This document shows positions 9,243-32,000 of a stretch of 32,000 nucleotides of DNA, in pieces (positions within the stretch are counted from its first letter, which is position 1; each line of letters starts with the position of its first letter). The notes under the pieces were generated by a model. It made no database searches. It was not told the origin of the DNA and saw only the letters and a program-made list of their open reading frames with translations. Source of the stretch: Fibrobacter succinogenes subsp. succinogenes S85 (lineage in GTDB: Bacteria; Fibrobacterota; Fibrobacteria; Fibrobacterales; Fibrobacteraceae); contig NC_017448.1 of NCBI RefSeq assembly GCF_000146505.1, positions 3,720,001 through 3,752,000 on the forward strand. Direction: 5' to 3'. Both the position numbers and the translations under genes were made by a program.

Positions 9243-9247
9243 GCCTT

Positions 9248-10536: not shown

Positions 10537-10626
10537 CAACAATAGTTTAACATTCGACATAACTGGTCTGGGCGACGGTCGCCTTACCTTATATGTGTCG
10601 GAACTACCCCGAGGTTGCGGTAATCC

Positions 10627-11889: not shown

Positions 11890-11891
11890 GT

Positions 11892-13419: not shown

Positions 13420-13422
13420 AAA

Positions 13423-14382: not shown

Positions 14383-15489
14383 ATGAAAATCCTTTATGTA
14401 ACAACTGTTTCTGGAACAATGGATTTTTTCCCTGAGCATATAAAAATGCTTTTGCAGGAAGGCCATTCTGTGGAAATTGCAACATCGTGTTCGGTAAAAC
14501 CGATTAATCCTTTGTATAATGAACTTGGTTGTAAAGTTTACGACATCCCTTTTTCTCGATCTCCATTCAGCGCGGACAATTTAAAAGCCTATAAGATGCT
14601 CAAACATCTTGTAGAAGCGGAATGCTACGATATTGTTCATACGCATACGCCGAATGCGTCAATGATCGCAAGACTTGCGTGTCGAAATGTTCGTAAAAAG
14701 GGTACGAAAGTCATTTATACTGCGCATGGATTCCATTTCTTTAAGGGTGCTCCACTTAAGAATTGGTTGATGTATTATCCCGTAGAAAAATTCTGTGCAA
14801 GATACACTGATGTGTTGATTACCATTAATAAAGAAGATTATGAATTGGCGCAAAAGAAGATACATGCCAAGAAAGTTTGCTATGTTCCTGGGGTTGGTAT
14901 TGACCTTGAGGCGATCAAGTCTGTTCAAGCAAACAGAAATGATATTCGTAAGGCAATTGGTGTACCGGAAGATTGCTTGTTACTACTTTCAATTGGTGAA
15001 CTAAATGTCAACAAGAATCATCAAGTTGTCTTGAAGGCTTTTGCAGAACTCAGCAATAAGAATACTCATTATGCAATTGCCGGGATTGGAGACCAAAAAG
15101 ACAATTTGCTGAATTTGGCAAAAGAACTTGGTGTGGAATCCCGATTCCATTTACTCGGGTATAGGGCAGATGCCTTGAATCTTTATCGAGTAGCTGATGT
15201 ATTTGTATTTCCGTCATTCCGAGAAGGACTTTCTGTGTCTATGATGGAAGCTATGGCGAGTGGTCTTCCTATTATTTGCTCTAAGATTCGCGGAAATGTA
15301 GATCTTGTTCAAAATGAAAAAGGCGGCTTATATTTTTCGCCTGGTGATGTTAAGACGCTTTTAGATCCGCTAGAAAAAATGATTGATGATGAAAAGAGTC
15401 GTAAGCAATTTGGATTATACAATATGATTGCTATTGAACGATTTGGGCTGCAGAAGATTCTTGGAAATATAAAGGAAATTTATAAATGA
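14383..15489 (+). CDS. Glycosyltransferase family 4 (GT-B)
   Basis: 368 aa. MKILYVTT start. FVFPSFREGLSVSMMEAMASGLPIICS (E-x7-E region). Confidence 0.85.
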   Translation: MKILYVTTVSGTMDFFPEHIKMLLQEGHSVEIATSCSVKPINPLYNELGCKVYDIPFSRSPFSADNLKAYKMLKHLVEAECYDIVHTHTPNASMIARLACRNVRKKGTKVIYTAHGFHFFKGAPLKNWLMYYPVEKFCARYTDVLITINKEDYELAQKKIHAKKVCYVPGVGIDLEAIKSVQANRNDIRKAIGVPEDCLLLLSIGELNVNKNHQVVLKAFAELSNKNTHYAIAGIGDQKDNLLNLAKELGVESRFHLLGYRADALNLYRVADVFVFPSFREGLSVSMMEAMASGLPIICSKIRGNVDLVQNEKGGLYFSPGDVKTLLDPLEKMIDDEKSRKQFGLYNMIAIERFGLQKILGNIKEIYK

Positions 15490-16526
15490 AAGTGCTGCAT
15501 GTTGTAAATACAAATTGTTTTTCTGGCGCAGAAAATGTGGTATGCCAAATTATTGATGTCTTTAGAAATGACATGAATATGGCGTACTGTGGCCTTGAGG
15601 GACCGATTAGACAGGCTTTGGAAAAAAGAAATATTAAGTTTTTTCCTATTAAGAAAATGTCTGTGAGCTGTTTAAAAAAAGTGATAAAAGAATTTAAACC
15701 TGATGTTGTTCATTCCCATGATATGCGAGCTTCTTTTTTTACCTCGCTTGCGTGTGGAACAATTCCTCTTGTTTGTCATATTCATAATAATGCTTTTGAT
15801 TCAAGGGCGATAAGTTTAAAAAGCGTGTTGTTTTTGCTGGCAGCTCTAAAGGCTAAGCATATTTTTTGGGTCTCTGATAGCTCATTTGCCGGCTATTTCT
15901 TTCATCAGTTGTTTAAAAACAAAAGCTCAATTTTGTTGAATGTTATAAATGTTGAGTCCTTGATAAAGAAAAAGAATGAAGATTCTTGTGAATACGACTA
16001 TGATGTTGTCTTTGTAGGCCGTTTGACGTACCAAAAAAATACAGAACGCCTTATAGAAGTTTTACATAGATTGGTAGAGAAATGTCCAAATGTGAAATGT
16101 GGTATTGTTGGCGGTGGTGAATTAGCGAATGATACTTCAGATCTTATTAGAGAAAAATTGCTTGATAAGAATGTGTTTATGTTGGGATTTAAAGCTAATC
16201 CTTTGAAAATATTAAGTGACAGTAAGGTGATGCTGATGACCTCCCGTTGGGAGGGGTTACCAATGTGTGCCTTGGAAGCTTTGGCCTTGGGTGTTCCCGT
16301 TGTTTCGACTCCTGTTGATGGCTTGCTTTCTATAATTAATCAAGGTGAGAATGGCTTTTTAAGCGATAATAATGAGGAGCTAGTTGCGTTTTTAACACAG
16401 ATTGTTAATGACGATTCTTTTCGTGAAAAAATGTCAAGAAAGTGTGTAGAACTTAGTGGCGAATACAATGATTTATGTGAGTATAGACGCAATTTGAAAA
16501 GTGTTTACGACAATGCTTGCTGTTGA
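15486..16526 (+). CDS. Glycosyltransferase family 4 (GT-B)
   Basis: 346 aa. ATGA start/stop overlap with the upstream gene. FVGRLTYQKN and SRWEGLPMCALEALALGVPVVSTPVDG. Confidence 0.85.
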   Translation: MKVLHVVNTNCFSGAENVVCQIIDVFRNDMNMAYCGLEGPIRQALEKRNIKFFPIKKMSVSCLKKVIKEFKPDVVHSHDMRASFFTSLACGTIPLVCHIHNNAFDSRAISLKSVLFLLAALKAKHIFWVSDSSFAGYFFHQLFKNKSSILLNVINVESLIKKKNEDSCEYDYDVVFVGRLTYQKNTERLIEVLHRLVEKCPNVKCGIVGGGELANDTSDLIREKLLDKNVFMLGFKANPLKILSDSKVMLMTSRWEGLPMCALEALALGVPVVSTPVDGLLSIINQGENGFLSDNNEELVAFLTQIVNDDSFREKMSRKCVELSGEYNDLCEYRRNLKSVYDNACC

Positions 16527-18870: not shown

Positions 18871-18889
18871 TTAAATTAGGAGACTAAAT

Positions 18890-19852
18890 ATGTTAGTTAG
18901 TGTGATAATCCCAGTTTTTAATGTGCAGAATTATGTGGGACGCACTATCGAGTGCATTCAGAATCAGTCTTATAGAGATCTCGAAATTATTATAGTTGAT
19001 GACGGCTCAACGGATGACTCAGGAAAGATTTGTGATTCATTTGCTTCGCATGATCAAAGAATAAAGGTATTTCATAAACAAAATGGTGGTGTTTCAAAAG
19101 CGAGAAATTATGGTCTTGCAAAATCACAAGGTGATTGTTTTACATTTATAGATGCAGATGATTTGGTTGGACTCGATTATGTTCGTGACCTTGTTCACGT
19201 GATGAAACTATATGATGCCGGTGTGGTTCGCCCAATTTGGGAGAAATGTGGTGAAATATTTGATTACGGCTTGTCCTATGATGAAAATGGCGCCTTTTTG
19301 ATGGAAAAAAAAGATTTTGACAGCATGCGTTATTGTAATTCTATATGGGGATTATACGATAAAAAGTTCATATCGAATTTGTTCTTTAAGGAAGATATTC
19401 ATTTGTGTGAGGATACTCTTTTTAATTTTTCAGCCTTTTTAATGGCTGGAAAAATGGCGTTGACAAATCGTGCGTGTTACAACTATATTGTCAGAAATGA
19501 TTCTGTCTGCAATCAAAAAATAGGAAGAAAACAGCTTACTATTTGCAATGCTTATCATGAAATGTACAATCTAATAGAAGATGATGAAAAATTAAAAGAT
19601 GTTGTCGAGAAATTTGAATTTGGGACGTTGATTAATTTACACAGGAAAATAGTAATAAACAAAACGTATAAAGAATATGTTGATGAATTTAAAAGCATTC
19701 GAAAAAGAATCATTTTCCTTAAATCCAAATGGTTAAAGGAAGAAAAGATGTCTACGCAATTGTCGGAATATATTTTTTTGTATTGCCCTGCAATAATCGC
19801 AAACATGTGTTATAAAGTTAAAGGCTTACTTCCTTTTATTTTTAGGCGTTAA
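18890..19852 (+). CDS. Glycosyltransferase family 2 (GT-A)
   Basis: 320 aa. VSVIIPVFNV, IIVDDGSTDDS and IDADD. Confidence 0.85.
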   Translation: MLVSVIIPVFNVQNYVGRTIECIQNQSYRDLEIIIVDDGSTDDSGKICDSFASHDQRIKVFHKQNGGVSKARNYGLAKSQGDCFTFIDADDLVGLDYVRDLVHVMKLYDAGVVRPIWEKCGEIFDYGLSYDENGAFLMEKKDFDSMRYCNSIWGLYDKKFISNLFFKEDIHLCEDTLFNFSAFLMAGKMALTNRACYNYIVRNDSVCNQKIGRKQLTICNAYHEMYNLIEDDEKLKDVVEKFEFGTLINLHRKIVINKTYKEYVDEFKSIRKRIIFLKSKWLKEEKMSTQLSEYIFLYCPAIIANMCYKVKGLLPFIFRR

Positions 19853-19894
19853 TCCTCCTTTAGATAAGCTCTTCTAACAAAAAGGTCTGGTTTT

Positions 19895-20905
19895 ATGAAC
19901 GTAGTCATTGTAACGCAACGATTAGAGAATAATTATGGTGGTATTTTGCAAAATTACGCCTTGCAAAAAATATTAATAAGAAACAACCATTCTCCGATAA
20001 CGGTTGATGTGCTACCAAGGCAGACTCCATGGTGGATTTATTTGTGTTCTTGGATGAAAACATGTTTATTTCTATTCTTTAAGGCGAAACGAAGACATTT
20101 TGCTAAAATTGGAAAGATTCCCTTTAGAAATTCATTGTTTGGTTTATTTGTTTCTGAAAACATAAAGACAACGGGTTTATGTCGAAAACTTTCAAAAAAT
20201 GTTCTTGCTCAATATAAAGCAGATGCTGTTATAGTTGGCTCTGATCAGGTTTGGCGTCCTATGTATAATTGTCGAATTGAAGATATGTTTCTTAAATTTG
20301 CTAAAGATTTTCCGATGAAGCGTATTTCATATGCAGCATCATTTGGTGTTGATTTTTGGGAGTATACGCCACAAAAGACCAAAGTGTGTTCTGAGCTTGC
20401 TCAAAAATTCGATGCTATCAGTGTCCGCGAAGAATCTGGCGTAGAACTTTGCAAAGTGCATCTTGGTGTTGATGCAACATGGGTTTTGGATCCAACTCTG
20501 TTATTGACCAAAGAAGATTACTTGCCGATTTGCGAAGAAGTTCCTGTTTGTAACGAAAAATACCTTGCTGTGTATGTGTTGGATGAAAACGAAGAGGTAA
20601 TCACAACTTACAAAAAAAAGGCTACAGCTCGTGGGCTGATTGTCAAAAAATTCCATGCCGATTCCAAATCAACTTTGACAATTCCTGAATGGCTAGCCGT
20701 GTTCCGTGACGCTTCTTATGTGGTGACGGATTCCTTTCATGGAACTGTTTTCTCGATAATTTTTGGTAAGGAATTCAAGTGCATCTATAATGAAAAACGT
20801 GGATCAGCACGTTTTAAATCTCTCTTGAACTTGTATAATTCAGGAAAAATAGAAACTATGCGTGAATTTTCGTTGAATTGGCTTAAGAATGCTTTGGAAA
20901 AATAA
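19895..20905 (+). CDS. Polysaccharide pyruvyl transferase family protein (WcaK/CsaB-like)
   Basis: 336 aa. VGSDQVWRP and VVTDSFHGTVFSIIFGKEF motifs as I recall them for PS_pyruv_trans. Confidence 0.75.
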   Translation: MNVVIVTQRLENNYGGILQNYALQKILIRNNHSPITVDVLPRQTPWWIYLCSWMKTCLFLFFKAKRRHFAKIGKIPFRNSLFGLFVSENIKTTGLCRKLSKNVLAQYKADAVIVGSDQVWRPMYNCRIEDMFLKFAKDFPMKRISYAASFGVDFWEYTPQKTKVCSELAQKFDAISVREESGVELCKVHLGVDATWVLDPTLLLTKEDYLPICEEVPVCNEKYLAVYVLDENEEVITTYKKKATARGLIVKKFHADSKSTLTIPEWLAVFRDASYVVTDSFHGTVFSIIFGKEFKCIYNEKRGSARFKSLLNLYNSGKIETMREFSLNWLKNALEK

Positions 20906-21457
20906 ATGAAATTAGAAAGAGACTCAAACTGTTCTTCTTGCGCGGCCTGTGCGAACATTTGCGCTCGAAGCGCAATAACAATGCGATTGGATGATAAAGG
21001 TTTTTATCGTCCTGTTATTGATACTGATAAATGTATATTCTGCGGAACTTGTGAGCAAGTCTGCCCGTGGACGAATGTTGTTTCAAATCCTAATGAATGT
21101 TTTAATGAGCCAAGAACTGTTGCAGCCTTTGCTAAGAATGATTCTATCCGCCTTGAATCGTCTAGTGGAGGTATCTTTACGATGTATCATCCAGAAATGG
21201 ATGATAACAAGGGGACTTCAGTTGTTCTGCTGAATTCCAATCATGGCAAAACCCTATTCGACTCCATTGCTGATAAAATTGTTCAATGCGAATCGAAGTT
21301 GGAATACGCCATCGAAGGCAACCCCTGCATAGTCCGCTCTAGTAATCCACACCCCAAACGCGCCGAATTCTTTGCGAATTTGGACAAGTGCTCCATGGAC
21401 GATCTGATAAATAAATATAGTCCTTATCCTTCATTTCCAAAACGAATGTATCACTAG
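20906..21457 (+). CDS. 4Fe-4S / coenzyme F420 hydrogenase beta (FrhB)-like protein with a large internal in-frame deletion; probably non-functional
   Basis: 183 aa against my recollection of about 400+ for relatives. Two ferredoxin Cys clusters (CSSCAACANIC; CIFCGTCEQVCP) and the start of the FrhB N domain (SSSGGIFT) run directly into the extreme C-terminal segment (DDNKGTSVVLLNSNHGKTLF...PKRAEFF). Confidence 0.55.
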   Translation: MKLERDSNCSSCAACANICARSAITMRLDDKGFYRPVIDTDKCIFCGTCEQVCPWTNVVSNPNECFNEPRTVAAFAKNDSIRLESSSGGIFTMYHPEMDDNKGTSVVLLNSNHGKTLFDSIADKIVQCESKLEYAIEGNPCIVRSSNPHPKRAEFFANLDKCSMDDLINKYSPYPSFPKRMYH

Positions 21458-21507
21458 GCAAAAAGATCCGTGAAAAAGATCGTGAATTCAATAAAGGGAA
21501 ATTGAAA

Positions 21508-22539
21508 ATGCGTACTCAAGAAGAAATAATGAAAAAATGGCCTACGAATTGGACAACTCCAATGGTAAGCGTTCGGTGTATTACGTATAACCAAGAATCG
21601 TATATTGCAAAAGCTCTTGACGGTTTTTTAATGCAAGAGACCGATTTTCCTTTTGAAGTTATCGTTCATGATGATGCATCTACAGATCGAACAGCTGATA
21701 TCATAAGAGAATACGTGGCCAAGTTCCCGAAGATAATCAAGCCAATTTATGAAACTGAAAATCAATATTCGAAACGGGATGGCTCCATTGCACGAATTAT
21801 GTTGCCCTTTTTAAGGGGTAAATATGTTGCTTTTTGCGAAGGGGATGATTATTGGTGTGATGCAAACAAACTGCAACTCCAATATGAAGCCATGGAACAA
21901 CATCCAGAATGTTCAATTTGCCTACACAAGGTTCAAGTTATTTATGAAAATGGTGAGAAAACAAAAAGGATTATGCCTGCTGGGAAAAAATTTAAAACAG
22001 GATTCATAACTCAAGATGAATACGCTTATTGCATAATATCTCAAGCGGATGTATATTTTCATTTGTCCAGTTATTTTACAAAGACTGATTTCTTGATTCG
22101 TATTCAGAGGAATAAGCCAGATTACTACAAATACTCTACTGCTGGAGATGCTAAATTACAGCGTTTTTGTTTAAATGAAGGAAAACCATTCTTTATAGAC
22201 AGAATTATGTCTTGTTACCGCACTCAAAGTCGTGGCTCGTGGACATTGAGAGAACATTCGACAAAAGAGCAACGAAAAAAACACATGGAAAATATGATCA
22301 AGTTAGATGATTCTTTTGATAATTATTCAAATTATCGCTTTCATAATTTTATAGAATATGGTAAAAAATATCGTTTCTATCGTTATTTAGATCGTTTCAG
22401 CCAATATAAGGAACTGTTAAAAAAAGAAAATAAGGAAAAATTACCCCCAATCCCCATCGCTCGAAAGATTTATTACAGAATACTCTCTGTATTCCCTTGG
22501 GTGCGCAATGTGGTTATTTTCTTAAGAAAATATGTGTAA
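21508..22539 (+). CDS. Glycosyltransferase family 2 (GT-A)
   Basis: The ATG at 21508 is preferred over the TTG at 21502. VSVRCITYNQESYI, VIVHDDASTDRT and CEGDDYW. Confidence 0.8.
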   Translation: MRTQEEIMKKWPTNWTTPMVSVRCITYNQESYIAKALDGFLMQETDFPFEVIVHDDASTDRTADIIREYVAKFPKIIKPIYETENQYSKRDGSIARIMLPFLRGKYVAFCEGDDYWCDANKLQLQYEAMEQHPECSICLHKVQVIYENGEKTKRIMPAGKKFKTGFITQDEYAYCIISQADVYFHLSSYFTKTDFLIRIQRNKPDYYKYSTAGDAKLQRFCLNEGKPFFIDRIMSCYRTQSRGSWTLREHSTKEQRKKHMENMIKLDDSFDNYSNYRFHNFIEYGKKYRFYRYLDRFSQYKELLKKENKEKLPPIPIARKIYYRILSVFPWVRNVVIFLRKYV

Positions 22540-22766
22540 TAAGAGGTGTTCTCTAGCCCCTCTTACAGGCATTCCTCGTTGTATAGGGTTCTCTATGTAG
22601 TGGGGAGGAGTGATGACTTGCTGCGTATCCATGCTGGTCGCAATCGTGGTCAACGTCGAAGGCTAACGCGAAATTCAGGTAGCTGCAGAGGGGTGGATTG
22701 TGACTCAGTTTAGTTTACAGCCTCTTTGTGGTTGAATTATTAACGAAATGAGTAACCTTGATATAG

Positions 22767-23741
22767 TTAGATGACGAATTTCTTGTTTTTGATTCTATCC
22801 AATTCACCCCTATCAAAAGCGGCAATATTTTCGACAGCCCCTCTCATCATACCCTGGAAGGTTTCAAAGGAAAGCCCAGCAATATGCGGTGTAAGGATTA
22901 CATTATCAAGCGTCTTTAGGGGATCATCTGCTAGCATAGGTTCTTCATAGTGGACGTCGAGCCCAGCAGAGCGAATCTTGCCGGAAACAAGCGCCTTATA
23001 CAGAGCATCTTCGTCAATAAGCTTGCCTCGTGCCGTATTCACTACAATGGCTCCATCCTTCATCTTTTCAAGGGCCACCGCATTTAAAATCTTTTGATTG
23101 TCCGCAGTCAGTGGGCAATGGAAAGAGAGAATATCCGCATCAGGCAGCAGTTCGTCAAATGAAGCCCGGAAAGAGATTCCCAAAGTCTTTTCGACATCTT
23201 CATTTTGGCGGAATATATCCGTATAGATAATGTTGGCTCCAAAAGCATGGAGAATACCAGCCGTAATGCGGCCTATGTTCCCCATGCCAACCATGGCAAC
23301 CGTCTTGCCAAAGAGTTCGTTACAGGAGACTCCAGTTTCCTGCTTTTTCCAAACGCCCTTCTTGACATTCGATGAAATCAGCGGAATGTTCTTGAGACAA
23401 TTTAGAATCAAAGTTACGGTATGCTCAGCCACACTACGGGCATTTATACCAGCATTCACATAAACGGGAATCTTTCGAGCCTTGATAGCTGCTTTGTCAA
23501 GCATTTCCGTACCAACACCTGTACGCTGAATCATTTTCAAGTTTTTTGCGGCAGTCAACACTTCTTCATTTATGAGCAGACGTCCGCTCACAAGAAAATA
23601 GTCGGCATCAACAGCTTCCTTGATAAGCTGTTCTTGCGTCGGTTCATCAAGGGTTTTGATTTCAAAACCTGCAGGGACGACGCTCTTGAGAATTTCCCAG
23701 GGTTTACCCGTGTACCGGTATGTGTGTAGAATTTTTGGCAT
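22767..23741 (-). CDS. D-isomer-specific 2-hydroxyacid dehydrogenase (NAD-binding; PGDH/glyoxylate reductase-like)
   Basis: 324 aa. GMGNIGRITAGIL Rossmann loop, NTARG, and TPHIAG (catalytic His). Its start overlaps the upstream acyltransferase by 38 nt. Confidence 0.85.
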   Translation of the reverse strand: MPKILHTYRYTGKPWEILKSVVPAGFEIKTLDEPTQEQLIKEAVDADYFLVSGRLLINEEVLTAAKNLKMIQRTGVGTEMLDKAAIKARKIPVYVNAGINARSVAEHTVTLILNCLKNIPLISSNVKKGVWKKQETGVSCNELFGKTVAMVGMGNIGRITAGILHAFGANIIYTDIFRQNEDVEKTLGISFRASFDELLPDADILSFHCPLTADNQKILNAVALEKMKDGAIVVNTARGKLIDEDALYKALVSGKIRSAGLDVHYEEPMLADDPLKTLDNVILTPHIAGLSFETFQGMMRGAVENIAAFDRGELDRIKNKKFVI

Positions 23742-24702
23742 AATAGATAATGTGTGAAATAAGCAAGGTTATAAAAACAACAATTAAAGGCAAAACATAC
23801 AACGCAACTACATTAGACGCAACACCGCAAAGTTCATAAACATGCTCCATAGTATGCCAAACAATTGGATGAATAATATACACGAACATAGAGTATCGTT
23901 TTCCTATTATTTGAAGAACCCCAGCATGTTTATTTGGATTGTTTACAGCATAGAGAAATAGACAAAATACTTGGGGAAAAGTAACTATGTTCACACCAAA
24001 ATCTCGCCCCATCAAAAATCTCTCTAACAAGCATAATACAGTACATACAATGGCGATAGCCATTACCCCCCCCCGTGTAAATTTCAGTTTACTTTTATAA
24101 GCATGTATCCAGTTTCCCATCGTAAAGAAACACAAACCCTCAACAAAAAAATTTCTATAGTACATATTTGGAATTTTTATTCCTGCAAGATGCATGCCTT
24201 GAGCTAGAAGTATATAAACAAAAATCATAATCGTTGCAACAACATAGATACTCTTAATTTTATGTACTCTTAAAACAAGAGCGAATAAAACATAATCATA
24301 CAACAAAGCAAATAAAAACCAGTATTGTCCCGCAACGACAAACGGCTGATTAAAAAGGAGCAAGTTAAGTAAAGCGCCTTTGCTAAAATAAAACACAGAT
24401 TTGCCAAATACAAAATATTGAACAAAGTCAAATAAAACATAGGCAACACATGCATACAAGGTTATTTTGCCCACATGCTTTATTTTTCTCGCCATATTGC
24501 TATTTATTTTCTCAGGATTTGCTGAAATAAAATAGCAGAAATAACCAGAAACCATAAAAAATAGCGGAACACAAAAACGGCTTACAGCTTGGACTACCGT
24601 TCCCAACAATCCAGGGAACTCGCAATGCATAAAAACTACGCAAATACACGCAATTCCTTTTATAAAATCCAAACAGTAATTATATTGTTTTGTTTCCGAC
24701 AT
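23704..24702 (-). CDS. Acyltransferase family 3 membrane protein (O-acyl/acetyltransferase), carries a G9 tract
   Basis: 332 aa, polytopic. N-terminal FIKGIACICVVFMHC and VPLFFMVSGY motifs of Acyl_transf_3. Very AT-rich (23% GC in one 60-nt spot count). Confidence 0.8.
   Translation of the reverse strand: MSETKQYNYCLDFIKGIACICVVFMHCEFPGLLGTVVQAVSRFCVPLFFMVSGYFCYFISANPEKINSNMARKIKHVGKITLYACVAYVLFDFVQYFVFGKSVFYFSKGALLNLLLFNQPFVVAGQYWFLFALLYDYVLFALVLRVHKIKSIYVVATIMIFVYILLAQGMHLAGIKIPNMYYRNFFVEGLCFFTMGNWIHAYKSKLKFTRGGVMAIAIVCTVLCLLERFLMGRDFGVNIVTFPQVFCLFLYAVNNPNKHAGVLQIIGKRYSMFVYIIHPIVWHTMEHVYELCGVASNVVALYVLPLIVVFITLLISHIIYYAKNSTHIPVHG
24066..24074 (-). repeat. Homopolymeric G9 tract (coding strand) inside acyltransferase 1; frame intact (ON)
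   Basis: C9 on the plus strand, encoding ..T-R-G-G-V.. at about codon 210. Confidence 0.9.
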
Positions 24703-24708
24703 CTTTGT

Positions 24709-25554
24709 TTACAGCTCCACAGTTGCCCTTCGCGGTTCAAAACAACAGCAGGGACGTAAGGCAACAATCCTAACACCACTCGCACGCTGCGGGCCAACTT
24801 TTGCAAACGTTGCAAGCACGCTAGTCTTGCCACCAAGCCCTAAAGCACCTACATTGGATTCGTTCACCCTTTCCGTGATCGTCTTTTCAAATTCAGACTG
24901 GAAGTCGTAATTGCCCTTGGCCATTGCTTCCATCATCATAGACGTTGCTTCAAACTGCGATCGTCCAATACCAACAGCCAATGTACACGGAGAGCAGCCT
25001 AACTGCGATACAGCCGGAATCGCACGAGCGACAATTTCATCAATCACCACTTGCACGCTATGCTTGTGAAACACGCGCTGCGTAATCCCACGAATAGCTG
25101 GACCACCACCAAGCATCAAAATAGTCAAACGCAAAACATCTTCTTCGACCGGCTTGATCAGAATCGGAGACGGAGCCAAAGCGCCAGAATCAGGATTCAA
25201 ACCGCCTGATTGATCAATACGGTGATAATCGTCGCCCAAAATCGCCATGGGGCGTCCTGGCAACTTGCGAAGTCCAGCCTCAATACCAGCGTGAATCTGA
25301 GCCAAAACATCTCCAGTAACCTGACGATTCGGACCAACCTCAATAAAGATATGTGGAATGCCGGTATCGTCGCACAAAGGCCCACGATTCTTTTCGGCAA
25401 CCAAAGCATTATCTAAAACCTGCTGCATCACCCAACAGCTATTCGTTCCCGGCTCTTTAGCAATAGCCCTGCGATACGCTTCTTTCTGGTCTTCCCTAAA
25501 GGTAGATCCAGCTTGTATCAAACATTCACAAACTTTCTGTTCAATATCTGTCAT
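24709..25554 (-). CDS. Fe-S type hydro-lyase alpha subunit (class I fumarate hydratase N-terminal / tartrate dehydratase TtdA-like)
   Basis: 281 aa. CDDTGIPHIFIEVG corresponds to the C-Q-D-T-G motif of class I fumarase/TtdA. Additional Cys residues (CSPC, CCC) are available for the cluster. Confidence 0.75.
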   Translation of the reverse strand: MTDIEQKVCECLIQAGSTFREDQKEAYRRAIAKEPGTNSCWVMQQVLDNALVAEKNRGPLCDDTGIPHIFIEVGPNRQVTGDVLAQIHAGIEAGLRKLPGRPMAILGDDYHRIDQSGGLNPDSGALAPSPILIKPVEEDVLRLTILMLGGGPAIRGITQRVFHKHSVQVVIDEIVARAIPAVSQLGCSPCTLAVGIGRSQFEATSMMMEAMAKGNYDFQSEFEKTITERVNESNVGALGLGGKTSVLATFAKVGPQRASGVRIVALRPCCCFEPRRATVEL

Positions 25555-25571
25555 AATTCACCACCCAAATG

Positions 25572-26651
25572 TTATAGCACCTTTCCTGTATAAATTTGCT
25601 TATCCCCTAATTTTTTATCTAAAAAATTGAATAGCGGCTTTTCCAATACATAAATACGGCAAATATCAATTATACTACAGGTTAGGAATATAGCAAGAAT
25701 ACTACCTATAGCATATAATGCATAAGAGGGTGCGTCATAATGTCCAACAACGTCAATAAAATCATACCATAACCAATGTCGCATTTCATCACCACTAGTA
25801 TGAATCAGGAACACACCAAAAGTCGAGGCTCCAATTATATTGATTATTCTAGAATAGCCGATTCTCAAATTTTTAAAGAACATAAACAGGGAAACTGAAG
25901 TTATTATAGACATGAAAGCCAAGGATTCTCCTACAAACGCATACACTGGCAAATTCAGCCTTAGACACACAAAAACAGACCCTATAGACAGGATTATTGA
26001 CACAAACGCCCCCCCCCAGAACATTACGTTTTCGTTTCTAAACAGCCCGTAAATGCGAATATACGAGCCTAAAATGTATAGTATAATAAACCACGATAAA
26101 TAATTATAATGCAGATGCAATCCCGGAATTTGATAGAAACCAGAATAAATAGTAATGCAAAGAATCAATAATAAAAGATGCTTTGTTTTATCCATTCCCT
26201 TTATTAGTATGTTTAAGAACGGTATAAACAAGAAAAAAGCCATAAACGCATTTGTGAACGAATCTGTAATACTAGAAAAAGGAAGTAAGCGTTTTAACAA
26301 GGCCCCACCAGATATAGCAGTCATCCCAACGCATGCAAAGACAAACAATATTATATACCTGTAAAATTTTACCTCTAGATATAATTTCAAGTATTTTCTC
26401 AAAGATATATTTGAAAAGCACATAAAAAAGCCAGTTATTAACACAAAACAATTAATACCGGTTTTCCCCCACATACCAAGAATCAAATAAAAAATAGAAT
26501 TTGTACTAGTAGGATTTGCAAACAAGGGACCATCGGCATTCATCAAGCCTGAATTAACCACATAATGATGAGCCACGATTGATAGCATCACTAAAATGCG
26601 ATACAGTTCAATATTCGACGAACGAGGCTTTTTTTTTACGATTTCAGTCAT
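25572..26651 (-). CDS. Acyltransferase family 3 membrane protein, carries a G9 tract; sits between the beta and alpha hydro-lyase genes
   Basis: The ATG at 26651 is 1 nt after the beta-subunit stop (TAGTATG). The track start at 26684 would overlap by 32 nt. ELYRILVMLSIVAHHYVV and polytopic hydrophobic repeats typical of Acyl_transf_3. Confidence 0.8.
   Translation of the reverse strand: MTEIVKKKPRSSNIELYRILVMLSIVAHHYVVNSGLMNADGPLFANPTSTNSIFYLILGMWGKTGINCFVLITGFFMCFSNISLRKYLKLYLEVKFYRYIILFVFACVGMTAISGGALLKRLLPFSSITDSFTNAFMAFFLFIPFLNILIKGMDKTKHLLLLILCITIYSGFYQIPGLHLHYNYLSWFIILYILGSYIRIYGLFRNENVMFWGGAFVSIILSIGSVFVCLRLNLPVYAFVGESLAFMSIITSVSLFMFFKNLRIGYSRIINIIGASTFGVFLIHTSGDEMRHWLWYDFIDVVGHYDAPSYALYAIGSILAIFLTCSIIDICRIYVLEKPLFNFLDKKLGDKQIYTGKVL
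26009..26017 (-). repeat. Homopolymeric G9 tract inside acyltransferase 2; frame intact (ON)
   Basis: C9 on the plus strand, encoding ..F-W-G-G-A.. at about codon 212. This is the same relative position as the tract in acyltransferase 1. Confidence 0.9.
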
Positions 26652-26652
26652 A

Positions 26653-27156
26653 CTAGTAAATACTCTCACCCTTTGCAGCTGCAATGATTGCCTGATACTT
26701 GTTAACCTTTATTCGGTGAAGCGCTTCCATCCCAAGTTCGGGATAGCAGACAACTTCTCGTTCTTCTGTCTGGCTTTCCAGCAAAGCCGTAACCGGAGGA
26801 ATCACCGCAAAAACGGCATTATTTTCAGCCAAGGCCTTAACCGTCTCTGGCTTGATGGCGCCCTTACCTAAGTGCATCTTGATACCATGGCGAGAAAGAG
26901 GTTCAAAGCTGCTTTCAATTTCCAACTTGTTACTGGAGGTGGGACCCACGCCCGCTGGACTCACCGCCGTATGGAAAATCACCTGCCCTTGTAAATCAAC
27001 ACCAACTTCAGAAAGAGTCCCTTCTTCGGCATGTTTCACAATTTTAGGCAAAACGGCATCGCGCCCTGTATAAATGTAACCGGAAATAGAAACAACATCA
27101 CCAACTTTGAGCTTGGCAATATCTTCTTCGCTAAATGGAGTTGTCAGTTCTATCAT
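26653..27156 (-). CDS. Fe-S type hydro-lyase beta subunit (fumarate hydratase class I C-terminal / TtdB-like)
   Basis: 167 aa. GDVVSISGYIYTGRDAVLPKI and the following beta-rich segment match the Fumerase_C-type subunit. ATGA overlap with the upstream PrpD-family gene. Confidence 0.75.
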   Translation of the reverse strand: MIELTTPFSEEDIAKLKVGDVVSISGYIYTGRDAVLPKIVKHAEEGTLSEVGVDLQGQVIFHTAVSPAGVGPTSSNKLEIESSFEPLSRHGIKMHLGKGAIKPETVKALAENNAVFAVIPPVTALLESQTEEREVVCYPELGMEALHRIKVNKYQAIIAAAKGESIY

Positions 27157-28490
27157 AACAGATTTATAACCTCGTCAATAGTAAACTCAGGACGATAAAC
27201 AATATCAATCAGCTTCTCACAAACATCCTTGCTATATCCAGCAAAAGACATCAAGCCCTCGATTTTCTGCCGAAATTCTTCTGGGGTCAGCGGATTTTCC
27301 GGTTCGCCCTTGGGATAATCAATCCTTGCGGAAAACAGCCCCGTTTTCGTTTTTACATCAACTAAAGCAGCACGGCGTTGTGGGCAGAGCGCAGTAAACT
27401 CATCATCCGCCACAACATCTATTTTTTGGGCAATATCAAGAATCCGCTGATCCGCGACATTAGCCTTCGAAAACTCGTTAAGCCCAGCATTTCCCGTAAA
27501 CAGAGCTACTGCAACACTATATGGCATACTCATTTTTGCGGAATTTACGCCATCCACTAGTTTATGGTCATGCCCCGCGACCGCAAGCTTATATGTATGA
27601 ACACAAACAGATTCTACTTCATCCAATAAAAAACCTGGTTGCTGACGAATTTTCATTGCGGCTTCAATTGCCGGATGTGTATGTCGACAAGAGGCATAAG
27701 GCTTGTTGTAAATAGACATGATGCTGAAAGAATCATTTTCAAAGTCCTTCAAAAAAGATATCTTTGCTTCATCAGTCATCACAGCCAAAAAGCCACGCTT
27801 GCCACCAAGAGCATCATTGGGCGCTTTAAATCGAGCTTTACCAAGATATGCAGCAGAAACGGCATCCATCGCCGCTCTACCAACATTCAACGGTTTTAAG
27901 TCAGCATTATCCTCCTGCATTTCAAGCACCCCGGCAGCGGACGTTACCGCGGCAGAAAAAGCGGACTTCATCTGTTCAAAATCAAAATGAAGTGCCGCAG
28001 CAATGGCCATAGTTGCCCCAACCGTTCCACATGTGCCCGTGGCGTGATATCCACGTAATTTGTTTCCCGGTTGTACCGCACAAGCCAAGCGAATCGTCGT
28101 TTCATAACCAATAATGGCTCCATACAAGAAATCTTGCATGGATATTTTTTCTTTTTCAGCAACAGGAAGCAGGGCCGAGAAAATAGTTCCTCCAACATGC
28201 ACCGCCCCCTTGCGATGACCGTCATCTAATTCCATAACATGCGAGTTCATTCCGTTTATCAATGCCGCCGTCTGTAGGGAACATTTGGGAGGCAAACCAA
28301 TAACCGAAGAAGCTCCATTACCGAATTCCAAAGAATCTATATAAGCGAGATCTTTTTCGTAAAAAGCTTTCGCTCCAGCCAAAGTGCATGCAAGAAAATC
28401 GATAAAACAATTCTTCGCCTGAGTAAAAACCTTTCCTGGAATGGAATCCTTTGATTGTTTTATCAAATTTTTCAAGAAGTTATCAGTCAT
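27153..28490 (-). CDS. MmgE/PrpD family protein (2-methylcitrate dehydratase superfamily)
   Basis: About 445 aa from the ATG at 28490 (the track TTG at 28511 is the alternative). The length and the ...NCFIDFLACTLAGA..., ...MELDDGHRKGAVHVGG... and ...KPYASCRHTHPAIEA... segments are characteristic of MmgE/PrpD. Confidence 0.8.
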   Translation of the reverse strand: MTDNFLKNLIKQSKDSIPGKVFTQAKNCFIDFLACTLAGAKAFYEKDLAYIDSLEFGNGASSVIGLPPKCSLQTAALINGMNSHVMELDDGHRKGAVHVGGTIFSALLPVAEKEKISMQDFLYGAIIGYETTIRLACAVQPGNKLRGYHATGTCGTVGATMAIAAALHFDFEQMKSAFSAAVTSAAGVLEMQEDNADLKPLNVGRAAMDAVSAAYLGKARFKAPNDALGGKRGFLAVMTDEAKISFLKDFENDSFSIMSIYNKPYASCRHTHPAIEAAMKIRQQPGFLLDEVESVCVHTYKLAVAGHDHKLVDGVNSAKMSMPYSVAVALFTGNAGLNEFSKANVADQRILDIAQKIDVVADDEFTALCPQRRAALVDVKTKTGLFSARIDYPKGEPENPLTPEEFRQKIEGLMSFAGYSKDVCEKLIDIVYRPEFTIDEVINLL

Positions 28491-28582
28491 TTGATTCTCA
28501 CAAAATTTCAATCCGTAATTTTAAACTTTTAACAAATAACATGCATCGAGTTTAGAAAAAAATATAAGATCTTTGTGTCATA

Positions 28583-29682
28583 TCAAATATTTACAGGTAC
28601 ATTTAACGACATTTGCTTTATCATAAGGCGACGAATTACATTCATTCGATGATTATACAGCTTACGGATTACTCCATAAAAAGGAGCTTTAACTAAAAAT
28701 CCACAAAAAGACATATGCAGTTTAAGCAAAAAGGAATAATACAATCCAAGAATGTTGTTAGGCGATAAGCTTACAAAAGTGTATCTTGATTTAATCTTAT
28801 GATCAATCTGTATTTCTGCAATCATACCAATTCTATTAAAGCTTTTCCAAATAACAAGAGATTTATTTTCGACCTTTTTCGGATAAGCCCATATTTTCTC
28901 TAATCCATTTAGAGAAGCTGGATAAAACATTGGCCTTGGAACATCCATACAAATATCAGGAAAAAGGAAGTTTCCTAAACTGAAAAAAATATCTTTTCCT
29001 TTATATTTCGTGTGTGGATTAATAACATGCGGATGACTTCCTATTATCGCATCAGCCCCTGCATCAATCATTTTTTTTGCATATTCATAGCAGTATGAAG
29101 GAGGGATAAAAACATGTTCTTCCGCCCAATGAGGTAGAACAACCACTTTGTCATAACTTTTTTTTAGTTCTGAGATGTTTTGTTGAATTTCCTCAATGGT
29201 CGTCTGATAAATGCCAAATTCTGTATCTGTCGCAGGATGAAAAATCATAGGAGCAAAGCCATGGAAACAGCATCCTATAAATGCCACCACCTGTCCGTCT
29301 TTCTTAATTACAGCTGGCTTACGCGCTTCTGAAAAGTTTTTCCCAGCTCCGCAAAAAAGAATCCCCTTTTGAGACAAGAGTTCAATTGTATGAACCATCC
29401 CTTCCAAGCCTAAATCTGAAAAATGATTATTGGCTAAAGTGACAAGATTTATGTTCATTTCTTGTAATTTTGCAAGGTCTTCGTCTCGAGCGTAAACAAT
29501 CGCTTTTGTCTTCGCCATTTTTCGTTCATCATAAGCAAAATGATTGCCAATCGCACATTCTAAAGTTCCTATTCTAAAATCAAATGTAGACATATACTCC
29601 AATAATTCCTTGGTTATAAAGGAATCTTGATAGGAGAGCCCCCCCCCCCAGGAACAATATCTCCACAAAATAGTAAATTCAC
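28583..29682 (-). CDS. CapA/PGA_cap-family metallophosphoesterase; reading frame broken at a G11 tract (phase-OFF as sequenced)
   Basis: The body frame (28583-29638) shows CapA-like motifs (TLECAIG, ANNHFSDLG, GSHPHV). Upstream of the tract a different frame reads GTG-NLLFCGDIVPGGGG, starting at the GTG at 29682 that overlaps the upstream TGA (GTGA). G12 or G9 would join the two frames. Confidence 0.7.
29639..29649 (-). repeat. Homopolymeric G11 tract at codons ~12-15 of the CapA-like gene
   Basis: C11 on the plus strand, counted directly (29639-29649). Confidence 0.9.
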
Positions 29683-30782
29683 TTTAGTATCGCCTCTTTG
29701 AATTCATCATAAAAACCACGACCGAGAGAAATCTGAGGCATAATTATATCACCCCAATTTCCTTCGATTAGCACCCATCCCTGAGTAGACAAAGCAAAAT
29801 CAAAACCAATATATTTATGACATTCAGGCAATGACTTATGAACTTCTTGTGCAAATTTTTTTAAAGATTCCCATTCAGGAATTTTATATCCTTTAAATAC
29901 TTTATTACTTTCTGGGTGTTCCTTGAAAACTCGGCCTAATTCATCATGACCATCAGTTATGATGATACCAGTATTCGAATCTATCGCTGCAAAAACGCCA
30001 CCGCAACCAGCATTGTCAACGACACTTCCTTTTCGCCCTACTCGTAACACGGAAACCATTGTTGAAAAATCAGAGCCCTTTCGAAAAGAAAAATAACGAA
30101 TTGTATTGACACTGGATTCGTTCCACTCGGCCATTCTAGCATCTTGTTTGACAAGTTCTTCTACGATATATGAGCCATTAGAGCGCAAGTAGTCAAAAAC
30201 CTCATCAGCACTCTTTTCCAACAACGAGATAATTTCAACGCCTTTGCCACAAGCCCCCTTGCTTGGTTTTGCTATAAAACGATCAAGTCCTTGACAAAAA
30301 AGTTTAAAATTAGACCTATCATCCTCACTATCTACTTTACAAGCTTTCCGTTTAAAGAACTGACCTGCAATTGAATAGAAAATATTTTTGTCTTTTAATT
30401 GCGCTAAAGCATCCTTCCAATTTTTTCCAATTGCTTCCATGCAAAGTTTATCTTTTCGCATACGTGAAATATATTTATTTCGTTCATATGCATTTTTCTT
30501 TGGGAATCCATATGAAAAGTATTCATTAGCCGTCATTCCATACTTTCTATAAGACAGTATGATATCTCGAATAACAGATTTTCTATATGCAGAATCATCC
30601 AACTGCTCCTTACTCAAGAATATCTTACAGTTATCCTCTATATCGGAAAAACAATCTCGTTGGCCCCACCAAACAATCTTTTTTTTCTTAGCATTATTGT
30701 ATAAGCGATCTGCCATATAAGTAGGAAATATGTTCCACTTAGCTTTATTCATCAAATCTTTAATTCTACGAACAATTTTCAT
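29679..30782 (-). CDS. Sugar-transfer-associated ATP-grasp (ATPgrasp_ST / alpha-L-glutamate ligase-related) protein
   Basis: 367 aa. AKPSKGACGKGVEII, VEELVKQD...SVNTIRYFSF, VDNAGCGGVFAAIDSNTGII, IPEWESL and IGFDFALSTQGWVLIEGN. Confidence 0.8.
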   Translation of the reverse strand: MKIVRRIKDLMNKAKWNIFPTYMADRLYNNAKKKKIVWWGQRDCFSDIEDNCKIFLSKEQLDDSAYRKSVIRDIILSYRKYGMTANEYFSYGFPKKNAYERNKYISRMRKDKLCMEAIGKNWKDALAQLKDKNIFYSIAGQFFKRKACKVDSEDDRSNFKLFCQGLDRFIAKPSKGACGKGVEIISLLEKSADEVFDYLRSNGSYIVEELVKQDARMAEWNESSVNTIRYFSFRKGSDFSTMVSVLRVGRKGSVVDNAGCGGVFAAIDSNTGIIITDGHDELGRVFKEHPESNKVFKGYKIPEWESLKKFAQEVHKSLPECHKYIGFDFALSTQGWVLIEGNWGDIIMPQISLGRGFYDEFKEAILK

Positions 30783-30812
30783 CTTATGAATTCCAATTTT
30801 GCACTATAATGA

Positions 30813-31946
30813 TTATACACCGAATAATTCCAGATAACTCTTTTCAGACTCTATTACGCCATAGGCTTCGGCACGCATTGAAATCTTTGTCGCCCAGTTG
30901 GTATGAGGCTTGATTTCGTTCATGCCCTTGCTGCCCTTAATCACCCCACCGGAAGTATGCAAAATCTGGTAGGCGTCATTGTATTCATCTTGCGTAACAG
31001 CAAGCATGCCATTGATGAAGTTCAAGTGGGTCGGATGGATACATGTCTTGCCCATAAAACCATTCGCCTGGTCCAGAATAAGTTCGCGCATCAAGCCATC
31101 AACCGCATCATTTACCACCGGCGAACGTTTCAGCAACGTATCTTGGATGTCAACCTTCGGCAGATCGCAAAACTTCATACGCTTGTTTACACGGAAATAT
31201 TCCCACACCGGTCCAGAAACTGTATAATCGTTGTTACGGGTAAAGAAGTTCAAAATATCCATCAAGCAATCACGAACAGTCATCACATCGTAAATCGTAT
31301 AGTTGATTCCTCTACGGACACCAAAGCACGACGAGAAATCCGTACCGCCCACGCGAATATTCAAAATCAGGTCTTTATGTTTGTCGCATTCCTGTTTGAT
31401 AGCCATCAGTTCCTGAGCGCGGCTTTCCTTGAACGCGACTCGCGCATCTTCAATAATGGGCATGCCATATATAATCTCACCAAACTTGGCATTGAGTTCA
31501 ACAAGGTGTTCCATATAAGGAGCGGATGTCAAGCTATTGAATTTCGGAAAATTAAACCCGCAAAGATACCGAATGTGACGAGGCTCAAGCATCGCAGCAA
31601 AATGCTTAAACTGTTCAACGGAACGAACCCGGAAGAAAATTAGCGGAATATCTTCGTATTTCAGCGTTCCATTTTTTTCACATTCCGCAAGAGTGTCCAA
31701 CACATGGATAGAATTGATTTCCGCAGCAGGCACGTCTTCTTCTTTGCAGGCATCTTCGAAGCACATCACCATGGAGGTGAGACCAGGATACTTCTTATCG
31801 ATAATCGCCTGTGCAAAATCCTTGGTGCCAGGCATATACATAGTGGCCCCCAGGCAATATTGCAAAAGACTACGGTCCGTATACTTGTTGAAATCGACCG
31901 GTTCTTTTACAAACTTGAAATTCGGATTATACTGATGATGTTTCAT
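30813..31946 (-). CDS. HpcH/HpaI aldolase / citrate lyase beta (CitE)-like TIM-barrel C-C lyase
   Basis: 377 aa. MYMPGT, MCFEDA (metal-binding acidic pair) and GKTCIHPTH (compare CitE GK..IHP.Q). It is longer than canonical CitE, resembling the extended C-C bond lyase subgroup found next to ATP-grasp genes. Confidence 0.7.
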   Translation of the reverse strand: MKHHQYNPNFKFVKEPVDFNKYTDRSLLQYCLGATMYMPGTKDFAQAIIDKKYPGLTSMVMCFEDACKEEDVPAAEINSIHVLDTLAECEKNGTLKYEDIPLIFFRVRSVEQFKHFAAMLEPRHIRYLCGFNFPKFNSLTSAPYMEHLVELNAKFGEIIYGMPIIEDARVAFKESRAQELMAIKQECDKHKDLILNIRVGGTDFSSCFGVRRGINYTIYDVMTVRDCLMDILNFFTRNNDYTVSGPVWEYFRVNKRMKFCDLPKVDIQDTLLKRSPVVNDAVDGLMRELILDQANGFMGKTCIHPTHLNFINGMLAVTQDEYNDAYQILHTSGGVIKGSKGMNEIKPHTNWATKISMRAEAYGVIESEKSYLELFGV

Positions 31947-32000
31947 TATTAAACCGTTTATAGATTTGAATAAATTTCTCTATTAAGCAAGTCATTCCCT

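Follow-up and report, generated by a model that had tools for sequence, protein, structure and literature searches.

CitE-type lyases, class I fumarases/mesaconases and proteins of the PrpD/cis-aconitate decarboxylase (CAD) group catalyse successive steps on 2-substituted malates and on acids of the aconitate type. The lyase family PF15617 and the ligase family ATPgrasp_Ter were reportedly defined by Anantharaman, Iyer and Aravind in 2012, in a biosynthetic module associated with Ter operons. In Campylobacter jejuni, an ATP-grasp enzyme forms amide bonds on the capsule (PMC11800379), and two reports on Campylobacter describe homopolymeric G tracts within capsule-modification genes that give rise to ON/OFF variants (PMC8355987, PMC3417653). 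The pantaphos (hvr) cluster and related phosphonate clusters combine a synthase and a dehydratase, which generate a substituted maleate- or malate-type acid, with ATP-grasps predicted to add amino acids (PMC7858074). The present study concerns a stretch of 32,000 nt from the genome of Fibrobacter succinogenes S85 (NC_017448.1; the window, to which all coordinates refer unless another locus is named). On its minus strand a PF15617 lyase, a two-subunit Fe-S hydro-lyase, a PrpD-family protein and a 2-hydroxyacid dehydrogenase are encoded together with ligase and acyltransferase genes in a polysaccharide (PS) locus. This cassette probably attaches a small carboxylic acid to a surface sugar.

Nine consecutive minus-strand open reading frames (ORFs) are present between 22767 and 31946, where an earlier reading of the DNA (hereafter the sequence-only reading) had placed them. 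All nine of the protein families that it predicted were recovered, each with a Pfam match above the gathering score. From the upstream end, and including the gene that is cut by the end of the window, the features are as follows.

31958–32000, minus strand: 3' end only of a PurD/L-amino-acid-ligase-like ATP-grasp gene (413 aa in the S85 genome), cut by the window end; its tail resembles the C-terminus of the ATP-grasp of a related locus, L001
30813–31946, minus strand: CitE/malyl-CoA-lyase-like TIM-barrel C–C lyase, the anchor of the cassette (C-C_Bond_Lyase, PF15617, E 3e-114)
29679–30782, minus strand: accessory ATPgrasp_ST, a putative amide ligase (PF14397, E 3.5e-44, 151 bits against a cut-off of 31.4)
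28583–29682, minus strand: CapA/PGA_cap-like (MslH/PgsA-like) gene of metallophosphoesterase fold, with the PGA_cap ORF at 28583–29668 (PGA_cap, E 1e-52)
29639–29649, coding strand of the minus-strand CapA-like gene, at its 5' end: poly-G tract of 11 residues (G11), gene out of frame
27153–28511, minus strand: MmgE/PrpD-family protein of the IRG1/IDS-epimerase/CAD branch (MmgE_PrpD N-terminal domain, E 5e-51, 174 bits; C-terminal domain, E 7e-38, 131 bits)
26653–27156, minus strand: Fe-S hydro-lyase beta subunit, class I fumarase/tartrate dehydratase family (Fumerase_C, E 7e-22, 78 bits)
25572–26651, minus strand (ORF 25572–26684): acyltransferase-3 membrane O-acyltransferase, first copy (Acyl_transf_3, E 1e-13), with a G9 tract at 26009–26017
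24709–25554, minus strand: Fe-S hydro-lyase alpha subunit (Fumerase, E 2e-47, 162 bits)
23704–24702, minus strand: acyltransferase-3 membrane O-acyltransferase, second copy (Acyl_transf_3, E 4e-30), with a G9 tract at 24066–24074
22767–23741, minus strand: D-isomer-specific 2-hydroxyacid dehydrogenase, last gene of the block (2-Hacid_dh and 2-Hacid_dh_C, the latter with E 9e-59)

The four tight junctions described in the sequence-only reading are all present: GTGA at 29679–29682, ATGA at 27153–27156 between the PrpD-like and hydro-lyase beta genes, TAG-T-ATG at 26649–26655, which means that the first acyltransferase truly starts at 26651, and a 38-nt overlap at 23704–23741 between the second acyltransferase and the dehydrogenase. 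The first needs a correction: the CapA-like frame with the GTG start stops after 22 codons in the window sequence, and the ORF that matches PGA_cap lies in another frame because the 11-G tract shifts the frame.

Nor do the nine genes constitute the whole operon, as had been proposed. A same-strand ORF upstream of the lyase gene has its 3' end at 31958 (tail ...GNDLLNREIYSNL, followed by a stop), and in the S85 genome this strand carries eight or more further genes. This could be followed in CP001792.1, where the lyase protein is residue-for-residue identical; over the 11,190 bp compared, the window and CP001792.1 show 0 mismatches and three small gaps, the window being from the other S85 assembly, of 3,843,004 bp. 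Upstream on the same strand in CP001792.1 are genes for the 413-aa ATP-grasp (8748–9989 in this copy of the locus, L074), a 299-aa protein without a Pfam family and a 371-aa DegT aminotransferase. Further upstream, also on this strand, follow a Wzx flippase, a 620-aa GT2/GH88-like protein, a pyruvyl transferase (the second in the S85 locus, at 2010–3020 of L074, in the upstream part of the minus-strand block), a GT4 enzyme and EpsG. Intergenic gaps are at most 92 nt throughout the minus-strand block of S85. The nine genes thus make up the downstream portion of a block in which 17 or more genes run in the same direction. Terminator-like sites were not enriched, and the scans for promoters and terminators, neither of which showed enrichment, were uninformative. 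The sole sizeable gap within the nine-gene run (28512–28582) precedes the PrpD-like gene; it measures 71 nt from the ORF start, or 92 nt from the start annotated in the sister assembly (approximately 28490). A sigma-70-like match at 28586–28559 in this gap makes an internal promoter possible.

A scan of one genome per species yielded 67 related loci, and counts are given over 68 non-redundant or 69 loci; the ORFs of each locus were searched with the window proteins and the three proteins encoded immediately upstream. There are 5114 homologues of the lyase (E < 1e-10) and 4926 of the 299-aa protein, and the best 120 lyase clusters are 83–98% identical. The hosts comprise Fibrobacter, Bacteroidales, many Clostridia, Adlercreutzia, Victivallales, Desulfatiglandales, Prolixibacteraceae and Myxococcales, and most host genomes are metagenome-assembled genomes from rumen or gut. 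The 299-aa protein is encoded in 63 of the 69 loci and the PurD-like core ATP-grasp in 62, followed by a DegT aminotransferase of either type (54), the PrpD-like protein (54), hydro-lyase beta and alpha (54 and 53, respectively) and the 2-hydroxyacid dehydrogenase (51). Wzx is present in 33/69 loci, ATPgrasp_ST in 32/69 (with none to four copies per locus, often in tandem), acyltransferase-3 in approximately 22 and the CapA-like gene in 11. The conserved core therefore consists of eight genes (aminotransferase, 299-aa protein, ATP-grasp, lyase, hydro-lyase alpha and beta, dehydrogenase and PrpD-like), three of which lie outside the window, and the ATPgrasp_ST, CapA-like and acyltransferase-3 genes are accessory. 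The neighbourhood that the sequence-only reading had singled out (CitE-like, ATPgrasp_ST, PrpD and Fumerase/Fumerase_C) recurs as far as its lyase, PrpD-like and hydro-lyase genes are concerned, but ATPgrasp_ST does not belong to the core.

In the related loci all tallied cassette genes are on the strand of the lyase. The arrangement is far beyond chance: 68 non-redundant loci of several phyla have the set, each with its genes in one direction. The lyase gene adjoins a hydro-lyase gene in 35 of 53 loci, the dehydrogenase gene adjoins the PrpD-like gene in 30 of the 46 loci that have both, and the CapA-like gene adjoins ATPgrasp_ST in eight of the ten loci carrying CapA-like. In L044 (Clostridia), the 299-aa and lyase genes are separated by a gene for an amino-acid permease (1311–2732); hydro-lyase and dehydrogenase are absent, and there are three ATPgrasp_ST genes. 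In L060, the most divergent locus, genes for an aldo-keto reductase and a 378-aa thiamine pyrophosphate (TPP) enzyme occupy the ATP-grasp position beside the 299-aa gene and the lyase gene (6894–9008), and a BspA-type surface protein is also encoded; a length of 378 aa is typical of phosphonopyruvate or sulfopyruvate decarboxylases.

The organic-acid enzymes do belong to glycan loci, as the sequence-only reading supposed, and are conserved in them. Glycan genes (Wzx, glycosyltransferase, initiating-transferase, RmlA/B, UDP-glucose dehydrogenase or CapD-type) are found within 10 kb in 60/68 loci. The eight loci in which none was recognised include five short contigs, two (L019 and L026) that carry capsule genes of other families, and L060, the sole locus left without a recognised glycan gene. 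The sequence-only reading would have been contradicted by regular recurrence of the set in central-metabolic contexts, and there was no such case among the 68 loci. In an unsupervised clustering of ORFs, dTDP-glucose 4,6-dehydratase and glucose-1-phosphate thymidylyltransferase were frequent neighbours; by iterative search, with a Pfam check, RmlB-like genes were found in 27 loci and RmlA in 18. Contigs of Eubacterium type encode an identical 299-aa protein and the same cassette with different glycosyltransferases around it, so that the cassette acts like a plug-in module. Identity between loci is 68–97% for the 299-aa protein, 54–98% for the lyase and 49–99% for the hydro-lyase on the acid side, and 23–67% for the core ATP-grasp and 33–46% for ATPgrasp_ST amongst the ligases. 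The simplest reading of this gradient is that one small acid may be joined to varying acceptors.

The lyase matches PF15617 over profile positions 2–320 of 320, with 382 bits against a cut-off of 28.4. It has local matches to the NCBIfam equivalog models for citE and RipC, far below their curated cut-offs (21.5 bits vs 443 and 23.7 vs 375, respectively). No PDB match was obtained with the single sequence; a family profile aligns the EDA and G-x-GK-x-x-IHP motifs to those of the CitE-like structures 3qll, 5ugr and 5vxc, at weak E-values of 0.006–0.8. Amongst 17 diverse homologues E63, D64, G298, H303 and P304 are invariant. The AlphaFold model (predicted local distance difference test, pLDDT, 61) gave malyl-CoA lyase, citramalyl-CoA lyase and CLYBL as its first Foldseek matches, with TM-scores of approximately 0.4. 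The low confidence of this model and of that of the 299-aa protein arises because the available homologues are too similar, and the fold matches are therefore only indicative.

In the hydro-lyase alpha subunit, cysteines C61 (in LCDD-G), C187/C190 and C270/C271 are at least 95% conserved over 52 homologues; these are presumably the ligand positions of a [4Fe-4S] cluster. Both subunits lie below the equivalog cut-offs (alpha, 101 vs 276 for fumarase and 47.5 vs 365 for TtdA; beta, below every NCBIfam equivalog cut-off, at 97 vs 238 and 75 vs 264 for TtdB), and identification as fumarate hydratase or L-tartrate dehydratase proper was rejected on these grounds. For the MmgE/PrpD protein the family assigned in the sequence-only reading was right. 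However, this is not a true 2-methylcitrate dehydratase: the PrpD equivalogs score 34–44 bits against cut-offs of 458–950, and the closest PDB matches are Bacillus subtilis IRG1 (3e-27), IDS epimerase (2e-25) and CAD (1e-13), with true PrpD (5mux) at 7e-4. Residues D96, D97, H105, H156, K206, K270 and H277 are retained; compared with the active site of CAD, the conserved residues proved common to the whole superfamily and do not discriminate function. The dehydrogenase keeps the Arg-Glu-His set (R238, E267 and H286) and the nucleotide-binding glycines G152 and G154. Its top NCBIfam matches are phosphoglycerate dehydrogenase and glyoxylate reductase, with all equivalogs below cut-off.

The core ATP-grasp has its best matches amongst PurD, PurT, Ddl and the L-amino-acid ligases. 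PurD acts on an amino-sugar acceptor. The conserved DegT aminotransferase, including the S85 copy, is closest to DesI (PDB 2po3, 2.5e-69; TIGR04427, approximately 301 bits), and DesI is a dTDP-4-keto-6-deoxyglucose 4-aminotransferase. These two core proteins lend support to the proposal in the sequence-only reading that an acid is coupled to an amino sugar by an ATP-grasp, the likeness to PurD and the L-amino-acid ligases being counted in favour of such coupling. That reading had assigned the role to ATPgrasp_ST, but the near-universal ligase (62/69) lies outside the window. ATPgrasp_ST of S85, which is encoded in a glycan locus, also gives a weak RimK-related match. The 299-aa family comprises approximately 990 clusters at 50% identity. 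No PDB match was found for it as a single sequence, and a profile search gave weak matches only; of 25 diverse members, 20 showed a weak relation to Peptidase_U32 (best E 2e-6), and the family has no invariant Cys or His.

Three genes of the cassette contain poly-G tracts, and these tracts are the sole differences between the two S85 assemblies over 11,190 bp, by 2, 3 and 3 bases. The CapA-like tract is G9, with the gene in frame, in CP001792.1 (where the protein is intact, at 365 aa) and in four independent Logan assemblies; the out-of-frame allele of the window was found in one record only. In the first acyltransferase gene, the tract is G9 in the window and G12 in CP001792.1; another assembly has G13 or more, at the end of a contig. 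An allele encoding a 143-aa C-terminal fragment occurs in public assemblies. The second acyltransferase has G9 in the window and G12 in CP001792.1. Its alleles of 332, 333, 213 (ending TRGGG before the stop) and 257/258 aa (with a frameshifted tail) differ solely at the tract, and the 333-aa allele was counted in 35 contigs of public assemblies, the 213-aa allele in 18 and the 257-aa allele in seven. Tracts of G8–G11, mostly on the coding strand, are also found inside ATPgrasp_ST, acyltransferase-3 and Wzx genes of Bacteroidales and Clostridia loci; loci with G8–G11 homopolymers are L010, L012, L033, L042, L054, L056 and L061.

Slipped-strand phase variation of the CapA-like gene and both acyltransferase genes is likely on this pattern of alleles, and the variable decoration by acyltransferases envisaged in the sequence-only reading is supported by the variation in tract length. 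On this point only, the length differences might instead be errors of homopolymer sequencing or assembly. Both S85 genomes are from an era of frequent homopolymer length errors, assemblies break at the first acyltransferase tract, and error weighs most for the CapA-like gene, whose out-of-frame allele comes from a single record. Such errors would nevertheless have to be confined to the three tracts over all of the sequence compared, and to have given the second acyltransferase gene at least five alleles, distinct at the tract only, across many short-read assemblies of independent origin. Moreover, these are the only G/C runs of 7 or more in the 32 kb window, a single 9-C run in the region has a chance expectation of 0.014, and the tracts recur in the same kinds of accessory genes in related loci of other phyla. 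Error is thus a distinctly unlikely account of the length differences as a whole. No paper linking Fibrobacter to phase variation was amongst those returned by a literature search.

We propose, with a probability of roughly 0.45, that the genes form a horizontally mobile glycan-decoration cassette within a Wzx/Wzy-type PS locus, which would operate as follows. The CitE-like lyase, acting in the synthase direction that is known for its CLYBL-type relatives, would condense an acyl-CoA and a 2-oxo acid; the product, a 2-substituted malate-type acid of the malate, citramalate or citrate class, may be dehydrated or rehydrated by the two-subunit Fe-S hydro-lyase. The IRG1/IDS-epimerase-like protein and the D-2-hydroxyacid dehydrogenase would tailor this acid or supply its 2-oxo-acid precursor, and the 299-aa TIM-barrel protein may participate in an undefined step. 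An NDP-4-amino-4,6-dideoxyhexose would be provided by the DesI-like aminotransferase, and the PurD/L-amino-acid-ligase-like ATP-grasp would join the acid to the 4-amino group via an acyl-phosphate intermediate. The accessory ATPgrasp_ST ligases, sometimes with the CapA/MslH-like protein, could then add one or more amino acids to the remaining free carboxyl group or groups, and the CapA/MslH-like partner might epimerize the amino acids added; the variable copy number of ATPgrasp_ST (0–4 per locus) fits such extension. Finally, the two acyltransferase-3 proteins would O-acylate the glycan, and slipped-strand mutation in the poly-G tracts would turn these two steps and the CapA-like step on and off. 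The cassette works like known pathways of glycan N-acylation/amidation, with an enzyme set not described for them. A literature search found no paper on the gene combination, on the two Pfam families by name, or on viosamine together with ATP-grasp.

Taken to its full extent, the proposal predicts a glycan substituent not previously seen. This acid, with two or three carboxyl groups and perhaps a double bond, would belong to the citramalate, mesaconate, aconitate or itaconate class and be bound through an amide to a 4-amino-4,6-dideoxyhexose. ATPgrasp_ST and a CapA/MslH-like epimerase would extend it with (D-)amino acids, and the cassette would have spread as a horizontal plug-in module through rumen and gut anaerobes of several phyla, with poly-G phase variation of its accessory steps in Fibrobacter that would be new to the phylum. 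This picture is tentative, and as a whole we think it more doubtful than the cassette model itself. Assignment to a single named acid (citramalate, mesaconate or itaconate) was considered and rejected, as the evidence does not choose amongst them.

Several observations weigh against the proposed pathway. All of the acid-side enzymes are below the cut-offs of characterized equivalogs, and their substrates are therefore not transferable by homology. Confidence in the lyase model is low (pLDDT 61), and the predicted TIM barrel of the 299-aa protein (pLDDT 64) has generic aldolase-like matches only. CitE-type lyases normally require a CoA or acyl carrier protein thioester, yet the cassette has no conserved gene for a thioesterase or for CoA handling. 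There are no RmlA/RmlB genes in the S85 window. Complete loci L010, L018 and L033 are without the hydro-lyase and/or the PrpD-like gene, and several others (e.g. L023, L027 and L038) have no DegT gene within 10 kb; the chain is therefore not obligatory as written. A structural study of the surface carbohydrates of S85 was published by Vinogradov et al. in 2001; a later paper that cites the S85 surface-carbohydrate study mentions an exopolysaccharide with an N-hydroxyethyl derivative of aminoethylphosphonate (PMC8942020).

The same enzymes could be arranged differently. A non-canonical elongation and amination of a 2-oxo acid might produce an unusual amino acid, which the ATP-grasps would attach, singly or as short peptides, to the carboxyl group of a uronic acid, the DesI-like amino sugar being unrelated. 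A synthase-like lyase, a dehydratase and hydratase pair and a dehydrogenase mirror the elongation from citrate to 2-oxoglutarate or of the leucine type, and the L-amino-acid ligases that the core ATP-grasp resembles use an amino acid as carboxyl donor. Genes for UDP-glucose dehydrogenase are found in 11–12 related loci, L044 has its permease gene within the cassette, and Cj1438 of C. jejuni amidates the glucuronic acid of the capsule. Yet UDP-glucose dehydrogenase is confined to a minority of loci (12/68), the sole conserved aminotransferase is of the sugar (DegT/DesI) type, with no amino-acid type conserved, and the dehydrogenase is of the non-decarboxylating D-2-hydroxyacid family rather than that of isocitrate/isopropylmalate dehydrogenase. 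This arrangement appears unlikely, although it is the strongest of the competing accounts of the cassette. That the lyase, the 299-aa protein or both act directly on a sugar is less probable again. The two TIM-barrel proteins have aldolase-like folds, and RmlA/B, which form an NDP-4-keto-6-deoxyhexose, and a 4-aminotransferase are associated with the cassette, so that, for example, aldol addition of a C2/C3 unit to the NDP-4-keto sugar might give a branched or higher-carbon acidic sugar that is tailored by the hydro-lyases and the dehydrogenase. The CitE-type EDA and GK-x-x-IHP motifs, however, are those of acyl-CoA lyases and not of sugar aldolases. For enzymes of the class I fumarase type and of the PrpD family, small di- and tricarboxylates are the sole known substrates, and the ATP-grasp would be left without an obvious role.

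Each of the enzyme families is best known from central or secondary metabolism, and a comparable logic of acid assembly and ATP-grasp ligation is found in the hvr cluster. In the divergent L060, moreover, the aldo-keto reductase and TPP enzyme replace the ATP-grasp, and no glycan gene was recognised within 10 kb. It might thus be argued that this is a small-molecule or central-metabolic operon merely situated beside glycan genes, the product of which does not reach the PS. Such a reading is hard to reconcile with a sugar aminotransferase amongst the core members and with a cassette interleaved with Wzx and acyltransferase-3 genes. It was rejected on the glycan context of the related loci: most have glycan genes nearby, and the remainder are mostly short contigs, while the long L019 and L026 carry capsule genes. 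We regard it as very improbable. Returning to the glycan-decoration cassette, the sequence-only reading was partly supported: it was right in outline, and incomplete on the extent of the block, its core genes and the nature of the PrpD-family protein.

Facing the cassette, a plus-strand block (10627–22539) consists of glycan-assembly genes. The sequence-only reading took the polymer built by this block to be the one decorated. This is not necessarily so, since the minus-strand block has its own Wzx flippase, polymerase-like gene (EpsG) and glycosyltransferases. The contents of the plus-strand block, and those of its members with individual coordinates, are given below.

10627–22539, plus strand, part 1: DegT aminotransferase, Bac_transf initiating transferase, pyridoxal phosphate (PLP) enzyme, PylC-like ATP-grasp, two GT4 enzymes, 789-aa protein
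10627–22539, plus strand, part 2: GT2, pyruvyl transferase, ferredoxin-like protein, another GT2
12472–14382, plus strand: PLP enzyme of the D-cysteine desulfhydrase/CuyA family and PylC-like ATP-grasp, a second candidate amide-forming pair
16501–18870, plus strand: 789-aa protein, a GT4 domain fused to an N-terminal half that has approximately nine hydrophobic segments and matches no Pfam family
19895–21457, plus strand: polysaccharide pyruvyl transferase, then a small 4Fe-4S ferredoxin-like protein

The PylC-like ATP-grasp passes the NCBIfam model PRK12767.1-5 (547 bits vs 271), and the N-terminal half of the 789-aa protein looks polymerase-like. The G+C content is 31–43% in the AT-rich glycan locus (12001–32000) as against 50–58% in the flanks and 48–58% in most of the flanking housekeeping genes (1–12000), which is consistent with a foreign origin of the locus. 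These housekeeping genes include ClpC-like, adenylate kinase and RuvA/B. Between adenylate kinase and RuvB, a DUF4423 protein is encoded on the plus strand (3789–4622), followed by three ORFs without a Pfam family (4609–8052). Opposite the lyase gene there is a long antisense shadow ORF (30903–31643, plus strand). In many related loci, too, such ORFs lie opposite the highly conserved lyase and genes next to it, and they form clusters between loci; they are not genes, and result from the conservation of the sense genes.

Surface glycans determine phage sensitivity, recognition by the host immune system and adhesion of gut and rumen bacteria. Proteins that are 55–98% identical from Fibrobacter to Bacteroidales, Clostridia and Actinobacteria, in otherwise different glycan loci, point to a widespread, selected and uncharacterized surface modification. 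The poly-G tracts suggest contingency-type switching, a possible new layer of surface variability, in a rumen commensal. The divergent Fe-S hydro-lyase, the IRG1-like protein, the CitE-like lyase and the 299-aa TIM-barrel family are new subfamilies for characterization. As the cassette is present in S85, a cultured model strain whose surface carbohydrates have been chemically analysed, its genes can be linked to structure.

The cassette shares features with each of several known systems. As in the Ter-associated module, a PF15617 lyase is linked to ATP-grasp ligases, but no Ter, phosphoribosyltransferase or HAD protein is amongst the annotated genes of the loci examined, and the partners are instead hydro-lyases, a dehydrogenase, a sugar aminotransferase and glycan-assembly genes. 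The CapA-like protein recalls MslH and PgsA(CapA): in addition to PGA_cap, it matches the MslH epimerase model (88 bits against an equivalog cut-off of 700) and the MslH structure PDB 8gq9, and its gene usually adjoins that of a putative amide ligase. In S85, however, it belongs to a glycan locus and not to a lasso peptide or poly-gamma-glutamate system. With the citramalate/mesaconate, methylcitrate and itaconate pathways the cassette has in common the families of the CitE-type lyase, class I fumarase/mesaconase and PrpD/CAD. It differs from them in that the S85 members all fall under the curated cut-offs of the characterized enzymes, that its PrpD-family protein is on the IRG1/IDS-epimerase side, and that genes of this type stand in glycan loci with ligases and a sugar aminotransferase. 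The logic of acid assembly followed by an ATP-grasp is common to the cassette and hvr, although the hvr enzymes are of the isopropylmalate synthase/dehydratase type and their product is a secreted phosphonate toxin rather than a glycan substituent.

The tracts of 9–13 G in the CapA-like and two acyltransferase genes of S85, with in-frame and frameshifted alleles, resemble the contingency genes of Campylobacter; here they occur in a non-pathogenic, cellulolytic rumen organism of the Fibrobacterota. The closest parallel to the proposed ligation is C. jejuni HS:2. There, the C-terminal ATP-grasp domain of Cj1438 is TupA-like, whereas S85 has ATPgrasp_ST and a PurD/L-amino-acid-ligase-like enzyme; the partner is serinol or ethanolamine on glucuronic acid, and no lyase, hydro-lyase or PrpD-type enzymes are involved. 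What the two would share is the overall plan, in which an ATP-grasp of the PS locus amidates a capsule component and adjacent genes make the small partner.

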